Assembly: GCA_963931495.1 (NCBI GenBank)
Contig: OZ007020.1
Span: 630,001-662,000 of the forward strand
Length of the DNA: 32,000 nt
Reading direction: 5' to 3'
From: an uncultured Alphaproteobacteria bacterium
GTDB lineage: Bacteria > Pseudomonadota > Alphaproteobacteria > Rs-D84
Below, in pieces: positions 8,218 through 27,337 of this stretch. The notes under the pieces were generated by a model. It saw only the letters and a list, made by a program, of their open reading frames with translations, was not told the origin of the DNA and did no database searches. Each line of letters begins with the position of its first letter. The stretch's first letter is position 1. The position numbers were made by a program, and so were the translations under genes.

Positions 8218-8757
8218 TCAAAATTTTATACGAAATCCTAATCTGAAATTTTCAGGGTCTGCGGAAACTTCCAGTCCTTGGTATTTATCAACTAATAACC
8301 AAGTAAACAATGCACTGACTGCTGCGCCGGCTAATACATCGTGCCAATAATGCGCCCGCGCATGTACGCGTGACCATCCGGTAACCAATGCCATCGCATA
8401 TGGAATTAAGGCAGGTTTCCAGCCATAGCGTTTGTGTACAAACATTGCGCCACTAAATACACCCGCAGAATGACCACTGGGTAAAGATTTCCAGTCGGAT
8501 CCATTGGGGCGTTGTTCTATTTCCAGCATTTTTATACCTTCGGTCAGCAGTTGCGCAGCAACAATGCTTTCTGCCAGTTGGATTGTGCCATCCCAATCTT
8601 TTTCCATTACAGTCATGCCCAATGCGTATGCAGGTGCCATAACCATCATCAAATCGCCCAGTTTATTTGGGTCTGTGAATGGCCCAGCGAATGCGCTGTT
8701 GGAAAGCGTCAATGTCGCCCCAACGGAAAATATGGCAAACGTTCTAAGTTTTGACAT
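8218..8757 (-). CDS. PAP2-family (type 2) lipid phosphatase with signal peptide
   Basis: The tripartite PAP2 motif is present: K-x6-RP (KMLEIEQRP), PSGH (LPSGHSAG) and SR-x5-H-x3-D (SRVHARAHYWHD). The N-terminus is hydrophobic. Confidence 0.85.
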   Translation of the reverse strand: MSKLRTFAIFSVGATLTLSNSAFAGPFTDPNKLGDLMMVMAPAYALGMTVMEKDWDGTIQLAESIVAAQLLTEGIKMLEIEQRPNGSDWKSLPSGHSAGVFSGAMFVHKRYGWKPALIPYAMALVTGWSRVHARAHYWHDVLAGAAVSALFTWLLVDKYQGLEVSADPENFRLGFRIKF

Positions 8758-8775
8758 AATTCCTATCCCTTGATT

Positions 8776-8803
8776 AAAAAAAAGACCACATATTTCAGTG
8801 GTC
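8776..8803 (-). terminator. intrinsic terminator 18 nt upstream of the PAP2 start codon
   Basis: The minus strand reads GACCAC-UGAAAUAU-GUGGUC followed by UUUUUUUU. The PAP2 SD and ATG follow directly. Confidence 0.7.
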
Positions 8804-8938
8804 GGGAGTTAGAACAGTCAAACATTGATGACCCCGCCGGTCTTGCGATGCGGCAGCATCCCGACCATTCGCAGTCGGGACAATATCAGCAGAATAAATC
8901 AATGTTTTGGTGTTCTAAGCCAATCCACTAAATATGTC
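8804..8938 (-). promoter_or_regulatory. structured 5' leader: candidate riboswitch/attenuator or stand-alone sRNA
   Basis: Nested long-range helices UUAGAACA/UGUUCUAA and AAACAUUGAU/AUCAAUGUUU enclose the hairpin UCCCGAC-N8-GUCGGGA and a CUGCCG/CGGCGG helix. A second UCCCGAC copy overlaps the terminator 5' arm. Confidence 0.5.
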
Positions 8939-8944
8939 GTTTTT

Positions 8945-8973
8945 ATTATCGGATAAATTATTTGAATTTGCAA
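8945..8973 (-). promoter_or_regulatory. sigma-70-type promoter just downstream of the recN stop, driving the structured leader and PAP2
   Basis: Minus strand TTGCAA (8973-8968), 17-nt spacer, GATAAT (8950-8945). Confidence 0.55.
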
Positions 8974-21998: not shown

Positions 21999-22087
21999 TG
22001 GCGGAGCGTATAGGACTCGAACCTATGGACCGCAAAAACACGGTCACAGATTAGCAATCTGCTGCATTACCACTCTGCCAACGCTCC
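21999..22087 (-). tRNA. tRNA-Ser (anticodon GCU), CCA encoded
   Basis: Hand-folded cloverleaf: acceptor GGAGCGU/ACGCUCC, 3-bp D stem, anticodon loop UUGCUAA, long variable arm GACCG...CGGUC, T arm AUAGG-UUCGAGU-CCUAU, discriminator G plus CCA. Confidence 0.9.
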
Positions 22088-26299: not shown

Positions 26300-26389
26300 T
26301 GGCGGAGACGAAGGGATTTGAACCCTTGATACGGTTGCCCGTATATACGATTTCGAGTCGCACGCATTCAACCACTCTGCCACGTCTCC
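26300..26389 (-). tRNA. tRNA-Ser (anticodon CGA), CCA encoded
   Basis: Hand-folded cloverleaf: acceptor GGAGACG/CGUCUCC, anticodon loop CUCGAAA, long variable arm AUACGG-GCAA-CCGUAU, T arm AAGGG-UUCAAAU-CCCUU, G plus CCA. Confidence 0.9.
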
Positions 26390-26428: not shown

Positions 26429-26616
26429 GTGATTTTGACCTTGCATAAAGCAATATATATTTTTGTAGTGGTAATGATATGACGAGTTGTCATATTGGGC
26501 TTCACAACCCTTTAACCAGCGTCGGTGACGACGATAATTATCTCCAATCGTACAGGTTGGAGTGCGGTTAATATATTGAATACCCGCGCAATTCTGGTTA
26601 ATTGTTGTGAAATTCC

Positions 26617-26650
26617 AACCACCAAATATTAATTGGTGGTTTTGTTTTTG
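26617..26650 (+). terminator. plus-strand intrinsic terminator with no annotated upstream plus-strand gene
   Basis: AACCACCAA-AUAUUAA-UUGGUGGUU (9 bp) followed by UUGUUUUUG. It ends 18 nt before the OMP gene ATG. The reverse complement has no U-tract. Confidence 0.65.
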
Positions 26651-26668: not shown

Positions 26669-27337
26669 ATGAAAAAAATAATATTAACCAGCATATGCGC
26701 ATTTGGACTGGTCGGAACGGCGTGGGCAGAAACGGCGCCAACATCGGAATTACCAATAAAGGTATTTGCTGGGGCAAATGTGGCAATGACAATGCCAGTA
26801 TGGTCAAACGATGTGAATGATATGATGGACCAAATAAACACAGAATTGCCAGGATTAAATTTGGGATTGGGTGCCGAAGCCGGTATAAAATTTGGCGTCA
26901 CCGATAAAATATATAATTTCGGATTAAGTATTGCGTATGATTATATGTTTGATTCTGCCGCAAATATTGGTTATCCATACAATCAATTAGTATCTGAAAT
27001 AAGCACCGGTTTTTCCGCCATCGGCATTTATTTTGATAATTATATCAAATTTGCTGATAACGCCGGAAAACGCAGTGATTTAGTTTTAGGAATTGGCTAT
27101 ACAAATGGTACGGAACGCATTCAAATGACCACAACACAATTAGGCTATACATATGGATTAAGCACAATTGATAGTGATGATTCTGGGTCATTTGTCGGGT
27201 TAAAAATCGGATACTTGCAACAAATTACATCAAACTTAGATTTTTCGGCTATGTTACGTATATTTATACCGACTGTAAGCGAAGGTGATTTAGATTCTAT
27301 ATTCAATGTAAGTGCCGGAATTAGATATAATTTCTGA
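26669..27337 (+). CDS. small outer-membrane beta-barrel protein (OMP_b-brl / OmpW-OmpA-like class)
   Basis: Signal peptide MKKIILTSICAFGLVGTAWA, alternating hydrophobic beta-strand pattern, and a C-terminal GIRYNF with terminal Phe. AAGGGGG SD. Confidence 0.75.
   Translation: MKKIILTSICAFGLVGTAWAETAPTSELPIKVFAGANVAMTMPVWSNDVNDMMDQINTELPGLNLGLGAEAGIKFGVTDKIYNFGLSIAYDYMFDSAANIGYPYNQLVSEISTGFSAIGIYFDNYIKFADNAGKRSDLVLGIGYTNGTERIQMTTTQLGYTYGLSTIDSDDSGSFVGLKIGYLQQITSNLDFSAMLRIFIPTVSEGDLDSIFNVSAGIRYNF

Follow-up and report, generated by a model that had tools for sequence, protein, structure and literature searches.

We analysed a 32,000-nt stretch of DNA from an uncultured alphaproteobacterium (GenBank assembly GCA_963931495.1, contig OZ007020.1, positions 630,001 to 662,000; hereafter the window), in which a structured RNA is encoded on the minus strand between recN and a gene for a PAP2-family phosphatase. 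With a probability of roughly 60%, we take this element to be a cis-acting, bistable 5' leader that acts by transcription attenuation at its own intrinsic terminator. Its sequence elements are conserved and covary across relatives, two sets of its helices are mutually exclusive, and it lies directly upstream of the gene. On our best reading, what is new here is an extended, cis-acting form of the fold catalogued in Rfam as sRNA-Xcc1 (RF02221; sRNA, small RNA), with a true terminator and placed ahead of envelope genes in uncultured gut Alphaproteobacteria.

The original prediction, made from the letters of the window, described a promoter, four helices, a second copy of the motif UCCCGAC, a terminator and the start of the PAP2 gene, all of which are present when the minus strand is read. 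To these we add three elements, the long-range helix P0 and the short stems H1 and H2. In transcript order the leader contains:

8945..8973, minus strand: promoter TTGCAA-17-GATAAT, sigma-70-type (TTGCAA 8973-8968, GATAAT 8950-8945)
near G8938/A8937, minus strand: predicted transcription start, at a conserved GACA
8937-8920, minus strand: P0 5' strand, ACAUAUUUAGUGG-A-UUGG, partner 8805-8785 in the minimum-free-energy (MFE) fold
8923-8920, minus strand: X, UUGG, the last four bases of the P0 5' strand; alternative partner CCAA 8910-8907, giving H1
8918-8911, minus strand: P1 5' strand, UUAGAACA, which is the loop of H1
8910-8907, minus strand: Y, CCAA, the 3' strand of H1, overlapping the P2 5' strand
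8907-8898, minus strand: P2 5' strand, AAACAUUGAU, partner AUCAAUGUUU 8829-8820
8859..8882, minus strand: P3 hairpin, UG-UCCCGAC (box1, 8880-8874), loop, GUCGGGA-UG (box1', 8865-8859)
8834..8856, minus strand: P4 hairpin, CUGCCG 8856-8851 / CGGCGG 8839-8834, cap UC-GCAA-GA with a GNRA tetraloop
8833-8829, minus strand: H2 5' arm, GGUCA, partner UGACU 8820-8816
8829-8820, minus strand: P2 3' strand, AUCAAUGUUU, flanked by the H2 arms
8816-8809, minus strand: P1 3' strand, UGUUCUAA, partner of the P1 5' strand UUAGAACA
8799..8807, minus strand: box2, UCCCGACCA, a copy of box1 (second UCCCGAC 8807-8801)
8776..8803, minus strand: intrinsic terminator, GACCAC 8803-8798, 8-nt loop UGAAAUAU, GUGGUC 8789-8784, U8 8783-8776 (-8.8 kcal/mol; also called by a scan)
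8218..8770, minus strand: Shine-Dalgarno (SD) region AGGGAUAGGA 8770-8761 and PAP2 gene, ATG 8757, 179 aa with a signal peptide

The promoter follows directly after the recN stop codon (8981-8979), and recN has no terminator of its own ahead of the leader. Taken alone the promoter match is unremarkable (9/12; 11 sites, where 7.9 were expected). Its -35 TTG.AA and -10 ATAAT are nevertheless invariant in the syntenic relatives L001-L007, although the spacer has diverged, which bears out the claim that the leader has a promoter of its own. At the other end the U-tract lies only 18 nt from the PAP2 ATG, leaving no space for a separate PAP2 promoter. The 171-nt leader RNA folds with -67.3 kcal/mol, against -39.4 +/- 4.1 kcal/mol for shuffled sequences (z = -6.8; none of 200 shuffles equalled it). 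With P0 included, the MFE fold of the whole leader is a single rod with a three-way junction at its tip, and the whole element is a 155-nt imperfect palindrome. The best NCBIfam match of the PAP2 protein is the lipid A 1-phosphatase LpxE, at 47.6 bits and under the cut-off of 177; LpxE enzymes also dephosphorylate undecaprenyl pyrophosphate (PMC6581854).

We propose that transcription from the promoter just after recN would give a leader of ~160 nt with two mutually exclusive folds. In fold R, the rod, the 5' half would pair segment by segment with the 3' half (P1 and P2), box1 would pair with box1' (P3) and P4 would cap the junction. In fold K each half would fold on itself, X with Y in H1 and J4/2 with J2/1 in H2, and box1' would exchange box1 for box2. 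The predicted result is a closing helix around P4 and H2, that is, the Rfam sRNA-Xcc1 consensus fold. Since box1':box2 covers five of the six bases of the terminator 5' arm, fold K would permit read-through into PAP2; fold R without P0 would free box2 and the terminator would form. In the clade of the window copy, P0 would lengthen the rod and also capture the 5' arm and loop of the terminator, so that this copy would be thermodynamically biased to read-through, and the availability of the 5'-terminal strand may here be the controlled step. We infer that the leader switches in vivo, probably with fold K as the ON state, and that the choice of fold would be made by an effector, whether an ion, a metabolite, a protein or the kinetics of transcription.

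The family is widespread: about 45 related leaders were found in 'Candidatus Enterousia' and in other uncultured Alphaproteobacteria of gut, rumen and termite. Every one is co-oriented with a downstream open reading frame (ORF), lies 18-45 nt before its start and ends in an intrinsic terminator. Homologues of the PAP2 protein form a graded series in uncultured Alphaproteobacteria; in an orthologue set with one genome per species (52 loci, for the most part in 'Candidatus Enterousia' and other metagenome-assembled genomes (MAGs) from gut or rumen), the leader is present at 34 loci and in at least three genomic contexts. Where the order recN, leader, PAP2, xseA is kept, the leader is nearly invariant at a PAP2 identity of only 79-83%, and P4 changes from CUGCCG/CGGCGG to UCGCCA/UGGCGA in a compensatory manner. 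A 69%-identical PAP2 in another neighbourhood (PBP1a, MraY, FtsW, MurG) has the same leader architecture built from different helix sequences. The order of elements across the family, from 5' to 3', is an optional 5' hairpin, the P0 5' strand, X, the P1 5' strand, Y, the P2 5' strand, a variable J2/3, box1, box1', P4, J4/2, the P2 3' strand, J2/1, the P1 3' strand, box2 and the terminator. Types B and C and the metagenome members have in place of the short P4 a longer arm with a AUACAAUAG...GAAAG internal loop. The intrinsic terminator, correctly called in the window, is found in 25/25 non-redundant PAP2 leaders, where it overlaps box2 by 2-3 nt or more. Because the leader also stands ahead of PAP2 in contexts without recN, and ahead of other genes, the suggestion that it is simply a long structured recN 3' untranslated region (UTR) is refuted. 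Pairing between the leader and PAP2 codons 4-6 had also been put forward; the repeat CUUAGAAC is real (8748-8741) yet not conserved, reading CGUAGAAC in relatives with 83% identity and being absent in type A2 leaders.

Fold R is supported by covariation in each of its helices beyond the boxes. P1 occurs in seven sequence versions across the family, P2 in nine and P4 in at least ten, with compensatory changes at 6/6 P4 pairs. Mixed-subtype MAFFT alignments (A4-A6) offset P1 and H1 by one column between subtypes, which makes column-based pair counts unusable, and these were therefore replaced by cognate versus non-cognate tests and by within-group alignments. In an alignment-free test of 36 leaders, P1 and P2 are specific to their cognate strands when compared with subtype chimeras (p about 1e-20, a value inflated by relatedness). 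Unguided use of MAFFT and RNAalifold on eight divergent members recovered X:box2, P1, P2, P3 and P4. That unfitted alignment has 97.6% of its fold R cells paired, against 84.2% in shuffles (0/500) and at most 52% in slid controls, and 9/13 of the P1 and P2 pairs have changed on both sides. The four helices first described in the window are thus real, conserved in orthologous leaders with compensatory changes.

The evidence for fold K concerns H1, H2 and the pairing box1':box2. In the window, box2 is complementary to UGGUCGGGA (8867-8859) over nine Watson-Crick pairs and shares 5/6 nt with the terminator 5' arm. Across the family, box1':box2 consists of 8-13 contiguous base pairs, nearly all Watson-Crick, in 36/36 leaders, and covers 3-6 nt of the terminator 5' arm. 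The proposal that GUCGGGA can pair with either UCCCGAC copy, and that the distal pairing intrudes on the terminator, therefore holds throughout. The alternative helix often exceeds P3 (11 against 8 pairs in L018, 13 against 8 in L057, 11 against 6 in L019), and the match of box2 to box1' runs past the segment that copies box1. Between subtypes the three boxes change in concert (UCCCGAC, UCCUGAC, CUCCAAC, CCUCCAA). These sequence comparisons clearly point to selection on the alternative pairing.

The two short stems vary in the same way. H1 (X:Y), whose loop is the P1 5' strand, occurs as UUGG/CCAA, GGGG/CCCC, AGGG/CCCU, UGGG/CCCA and GGAC/GUCC. H2 (J4/2:J2/1), whose loop is the P2 3' strand and which was proposed by RNAalifold unguided, occurs as GGUCA/UGACU, AUUCA/UGAAU, GACAAU/AUUGUU, ACUAU/AUAGU and CAAUUU/GAAUUG. 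At least four closing pairs are found for H1 in 22/36 leaders and for H2 in 25/36, against 0/36 for the opposite strands used as controls. In 41 model-aligned sequences, an alignment fitted to its own model, 88.7% of fold K cells are paired, against 73.4% in shuffles (0/500), and 16/20 pairs are compensatory. The unfitted alignment A10 gives 95.0% paired cells with hardly any variation, because the search pattern fixed the boxes. Folds R and K are most simply alternatives, since P1 and P2 use up the loops of H1 and H2 and box2 lies 0-2 nt from the P1 3' strand.

The helix P0 distinguishes the window clade. Its cognate duplex has -17.4 kcal/mol, compared with -10.2 for non-cognate and -6.1 for shuffled strands (z = -4.9). 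Cognate specificity is confined to types A and A2 (z = -3 to -5), with a weak signal in type B. P0 as a universal antiterminator was rejected since in types B2 and C it does no better than chance, and P0 as a giant terminator stem was rejected since it ends 4 nt short of the U-tract in most members. Computed energies for four leaders were:

window leader (type A): rod + P0 without terminator -64.8 (MFE), terminator conformer -58.3, box1':box2 conformer -46.0 kcal/mol
L022 (type C): rod + P0 not applicable, terminator conformer -68.7 (the MFE includes the terminator), box1':box2 conformer -56.9 kcal/mol
L170 (metagenome member): rod + P0 not applicable, terminator conformer -62.2 (the MFE includes the terminator), box1':box2 conformer -49.0 kcal/mol
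L018 (type B): rod + P0 -69.5 (MFE), terminator conformer -68.5, box1':box2 conformer -57.8 kcal/mol

In the window the box1':box2 conformer lies 18.8 kcal/mol above the MFE, and P0 is the thermodynamically dominant competitor of the terminator. In a window transcript ending just before the terminator 3' arm, 6/6 bases of the 5' arm are already paired in P0, compared with 0/9 terminator-arm bases at the equivalent point in L022.

The kinship with sRNA-Xcc1 is seen in the Rfam comparisons. At gathering threshold, the window and 26 related loci gave only transfer RNAs (tRNAs) and a single match in the metagenome relative L170. The window leader has no match at that level, and its only notable sub-threshold match is to RF02221 (22.8 bits, E = 0.12; gathering threshold 53 bits). 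L170 reaches 58.9 bits (E = 1.4e-8) and includes the AUACAAUA...GAAAG loop of P4. It is the one relative of 19 to pass; L087 scores 28.8 bits and the other 17 have no match. SgrS (10.8 bits), microRNA, Lig-thermometer and other sub-threshold Rfam matches were set aside as chance, most of them falling outside the leaders. Fold K is the RF02221 consensus structure, with box1':box2 as the closing helix of the Rfam alignment, and in the alignment of the window copy GGUCGGGAU pairs with CUCCCGACC around P4 and GGUCA..UGACU. The window copy has the RF02221 layout of closing helix, two hairpins, 6-8-nt linker and ACC, and all three of these helices covary. The RF02221 internal loop AUACAAUA / GGAAUA is not in the window P4 (CUGCCG-CAUC-GCAA-GAC-CGGCGG) and is present in relatives of types B and N. 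A model built from the 3' domains of 27 leaders, with L170 left out (R1), recovers L170 at 57.8 bits and finds new copies, including a second one in the window. With filters off, R1 scores the copy of phage Aaphi23 at its Rfam coordinates with 30.8 bits (E about 2e-6) and that of the Shiga toxin (Stx) phage P13374 with only 9.6 bits (E = 0.38); with default filters it finds neither. Judged by these alignments, the window element appears to be a divergent RF02221 relative with a truncated P4 and a 5' extension, and not a formal member. The novelty claimed in the original prediction thus stands in that no known riboswitch class is matched in Rfam, and falls in that the 3' two-thirds of the leader are related to sRNA-Xcc1.

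In annotated phage records, RF02221 copies are themselves 5' leaders, located between Q and ant in Aaphi23 (86.1 bits) and upstream of the antitermination gene in P13374 (79.6 bits). Both have an upstream segment complementary to the second hairpin, with a sequence that differs between the two phages (z = -3.9 and -3.0). As a lead only, a 5' 'anti-strand' may be a general, unmodelled feature of sRNA-Xcc1 loci. The same phage loci (L183 1395-1445, L184 1430-1475) carry a terminator-like hairpin CCGC...GCGG-U7 ~50 nt upstream of the element, and in P13374 the RF02221 copy is preceded, at a distance of ~900 nt, by C4 (RF01695) and isrK (RF01394) RNAs (L184 463-650).

The second copy in the window has a box2 that differs from its box1 by one base, which placed it outside an exact-match scan:

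26476..26650, plus strand: second family member, type C (model R1 37.4 bits, E about 2e-6)
26542-26549, plus strand: box1
26555-26562, plus strand: box1'
26613-26620, plus strand: box2
26617-26641, plus strand: terminator
26669-27337, plus strand: downstream gene, ATG 26669, a 222-aa signal-peptide protein ending ...IRYNF

Its fold has z = -4.8 and its MFE structure is the rod plus terminator. The 222-aa protein is possibly an outer-membrane beta-barrel; a Pfam search gave no match for it or for the Cys-rich proteins found behind other copies. Enterousia-type genomes have second and third leader copies before such Cys-rich secreted proteins. A metagenome scan for the triple-box signature alone, which fixes the box sequence and is uninformative on box covariation, gave more than 120 stretches, about 14 of them genuine members; the remainder are mostly chance or unrelated tandem repeats. 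The genes behind the metagenome members encode another PAP2, an RgpF-type rhamnan synthesis protein, a GT10 fucosyltransferase, an S8 subtilase, an ankyrin-repeat lipoprotein and several small Cys-rich secreted proteins. Altogether the downstream set comprises envelope and surface genes: LpxE-like PAP2, putative outer-membrane protein, Cys-rich secreted proteins, glycosyltransferases and subtilase. A PAP2-specific riboswitch, as first envisaged, does not fit this variety of genes, and a phosphate or lipid-headgroup ligand has no particular basis since the element is not PAP2-specific. Copies within one genome differ in their boxes (UCCCGAC and CUCCAAU/UUCCAAC in the window, UCCCGAC and CUCCAAC in L021, UCCCGAC and CUCCUGA in L026), and their differing box and helix sequences argue for pairing in cis and not for a shared trans factor.

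Several features of these loci lie beside the leader itself. The second window copy stands just downstream of a tRNA gene on the minus strand (26303-26389), which with the tRNA gene at 22002-22087 (also minus strand) makes up the sole gathering-threshold Rfam matches in the window. A 12-nt periodic GCAGCCGCCGAAG-type repeat at 521-624, inside the ORF 174-644, is an Ala/Glu-rich low-complexity coding repeat. The metagenome contigs L156, L171, L182, L154, L148 and L140 contain tandem arrays whose units include TCCCGAC...GTCGGGA and do not belong to the leader family; those of L156 and L171 resemble tRNA-derived repeats. Leaderless PAP2 loci (L025, L028, L029, L041, L045, L058), together with L034, L048 and L053, share a promoter motif, TTGAyt-N4-5-TTCCTAT(T)TA, ~20-60 nt before the region where transcripts start; its TTCCTAT lies within the spacer that follows the -35. 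A regulator could use it as an operator; the motif is absent from the window promoter. The same small PAP2 family (57% identity) occurs without the leader in the Wolinella MAGs L054 and L056 (Epsilonproteobacteria), consistent with an LpxE-like role and possibly horizontal transfer. In L008 (9958-9995), L022, L023, L055, L018, L034 and others, the terminator U-tract is complementary to an A-tract just 5' of the SD, for example GUGUUUUGU...ACAAAACA, so that read-through RNA could fold into a hairpin close to the SD; this complementarity is weak or absent in the window copy.

Several points weigh against a bistable attenuator. Where transcription starts, that short and full-length RNAs are made and that the leader switches are all predictions, and the 41-sequence alignment behind part of the fold K statistics was fitted to its own model. 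Every leader computed puts fold K 12-19 kcal/mol above fold R, so that fold K would need strong stabilisation or kinetic trapping, and H1 with P1, like H2 with P2, could coexist as pseudoknots. In the window clade both fold K and fold R with P0 block the terminator, while fold R leaves it free in types B2, C and the metagenome members; orthologous leaders thus have opposite thermodynamic defaults, for which the attenuator model has no explanation. The nucleotides that stay invariant from subtype to subtype include few unpaired ones, unlike what is typical of small-molecule aptamers. Finally, the founding member of the family was reported as a trans-acting sRNA (PMC2996969), and trans action is also claimed by Chen et al. 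2011, as cited in 10.1101/2025.06.18.660453.

The nearest competitor is a classical small-molecule or ion riboswitch, in which a conserved aptamer and its ligand would select between terminator and antiterminator. The leader is a structured 5' UTR domain, co-oriented with its gene and supported by covariation, with a multi-helix junction and a GNRA cap; terminator and antiterminator exclude each other in sequence (box1':box2 in all leaders, P0 in types A and A2); no known Rfam riboswitch class is matched; and the element recurs before a functionally coherent envelope gene set. Set against this, the invariant positions belong mostly to the switching helices (boxes, H1, H2), the junctions differ by subtype (J4/2 is GGUC, AUUC or ACAAU; J1/2 and J2/3 vary), the window subtype has lost the internal loop that is best conserved in the family (AUACAAUA/GAAAG in P4), and the downstream genes define no metabolic pathway. 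We regard a true aptamer as possible and rather doubtful.

A stand-alone trans-acting sRNA gene with its own promoter and terminator, merely adjoining PAP2 and pairing with distant mRNAs, would agree with the literature. RF02221 RNAs of ~88-100 nt appear on Northern blots in Xanthomonas, by which the 88-nt sRNA-Xcc1 of Xanthomonas campestris was validated (PMC2996969); family members are annotated as sRNAs in Xylella, where there are seven copies (PMC12189769), and in phages (10.1101/2020.03.17.996009). Our literature search found no earlier PAP2 leader RNA and no cis-regulatory role proposed for sRNA-Xcc1, which is discussed as a trans-acting sRNA. The terminator would also give a short, very stable rod-shaped RNA of ~160 nt, although attenuation predicts a short transcript equally well. 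We nevertheless find this account unlikely. All ~45 copies are co-oriented and lie 18-45 nt before the start of an ORF, with no space for another promoter. The classical copies are leaders as well: besides the Aaphi23 (Q-ant) and P13374 (antitermination gene) loci, sRNA-Xcc1 precedes symE, in the same orientation, in the integron cassette that is most widespread in Xanthomonas (10.1101/2025.06.18.660453), and it lies upstream of an ORF6N gene in APSE phages (10.1101/2020.03.17.996009). In addition, each copy has helix and box sequences of its own, also where several copies share a genome, so that there is no shared seed for targets in trans.

It is improbable that the leader is a constitutive structured 5' UTR that does not switch, its terminator serving as recN terminator or insulator and its structure stabilising the RNA. 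The absence of a recN terminator before the leader would fit this, and the window MFE fold, already without the terminator hairpin, suggests constitutive read-through here. However, other contexts have the leader but no recN, compensatory change maintains both of two incompatible helix sets, and the match of box2 to box1' past the segment copied from box1 is hard to explain without selection for the alternative pairing. That a mobile palindromic repeat (a miniature inverted-repeat transposable element (MITE), a repetitive extragenic palindrome (REP) or a Correia-like element) landed between recN and PAP2 by chance is extremely unlikely: the element is a 155-nt imperfect palindrome with more than one copy per genome, but the copies are not near-identical (a repeat search in the window found no near-identical second leader), their helices change in a compensatory manner that includes G-U pairs working on one strand only, every copy in 720 kb is upstream of and co-oriented with an ORF, the syntenic position is conserved across species with PAP2 only 79-98% identical, and no terminal repeats or target duplications were seen.

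Two further ideas were rejected. A leader-peptide attenuator fails because no ORF is conserved: relatives have a 1-nt indel that breaks the only AUG-initiated frame, which begins in the P3 loop, and L021 and L026 lack the loop AUG. A pairing of box with SD was dropped: GGGA/UCCC against GGAG/CUCC seems to follow the subtype, but type A does not keep it (AAGGAUAGGA).

More tentatively, the window element and its ~45 relatives might constitute a new class of RNA switch that responds to a signal, as a riboswitch or as an attenuator that depends on a factor. The switch would govern a regulon of the outer membrane and cell surface (lipid A/undecaprenyl phosphatase, outer-membrane protein, secreted Cys-rich proteins, glycosyltransferases) in gut Alphaproteobacteria that are uncultured and have reduced genomes. 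By extension, the 'sRNA-Xcc1' of Xanthomonas integrons, Xylella islands and lambdoid phages might be the sensor half of a cis-regulatory leader and not a trans-acting sRNA. We think this wider view less probable than not, and set out what it would mean. The leader would be a well-defined orphan RNA switch, unusually explicit in its design of two folds that compensatory evolution maintains, and it would control envelope remodelling in gut bacteria beyond culture; judging by the genes downstream (LpxE-like phosphatase, outer-membrane and secreted proteins), the signal is tied to the cell surface or the host environment. sRNA-Xcc1, which annotation pipelines label in many pathogens and phages, could then be reinterpreted, in a way open to test, as the sensor domain or the attenuated product of a leader acting in cis before toxin, antirepressor and surface-protein genes. 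Most of the leader family escapes the current Rfam model, with 1/19 relatives tested above threshold.

Among known systems the closest is sRNA-Xcc1 itself. From box1' onwards the architectures agree: a closing helix of ~9 bp, a first hairpin (P4), a second hairpin (H2), the linker and ACC. The AUACAAUA...GAAAG internal loop is shared by the relatives of types B and N, and the classical copies likewise lie just upstream of a co-oriented gene. The window leader differs in that its P4 is reduced to a GNRA-capped stem, in its true U-tract terminator, in its alphaproteobacterial hosts and envelope-gene cargo, and above all in an extra 5' half of ~80 nt (P0, H1, the 5' strands of P1 and P2, box1) that is complementary to the Xcc1 fold and is not part of the RF02221 model or the literature.

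A second likeness is to the platform of trp-type attenuators and riboswitches, with box1, box1', box2 and the terminator 3' arm as segments 1-4. The logic is the same, 1:2 with 3:4 allowing termination and 2:3 preventing it, and the start codon follows right after the U-tract of the 5' UTR. In the leader, however, segments 2 and 3 are 50-70 nt apart, the intervening P4, H2 and 3' strands of P2 and P1 belong to a second long-range switch, and there is no conserved leader peptide. The third comparison is with C4 of phages P1 and P7 and IsrK of Salmonella, which control ant/antQ (antirepressor/antiterminator genes) and are likewise structured leaders with repeated complementary boxes within one transcript. 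Neither by sequence nor by model do they match the window element. C4 is processed and acts as an antisense RNA on sites downstream; the complementary boxes of the leader family described here are proposed to act in cis.

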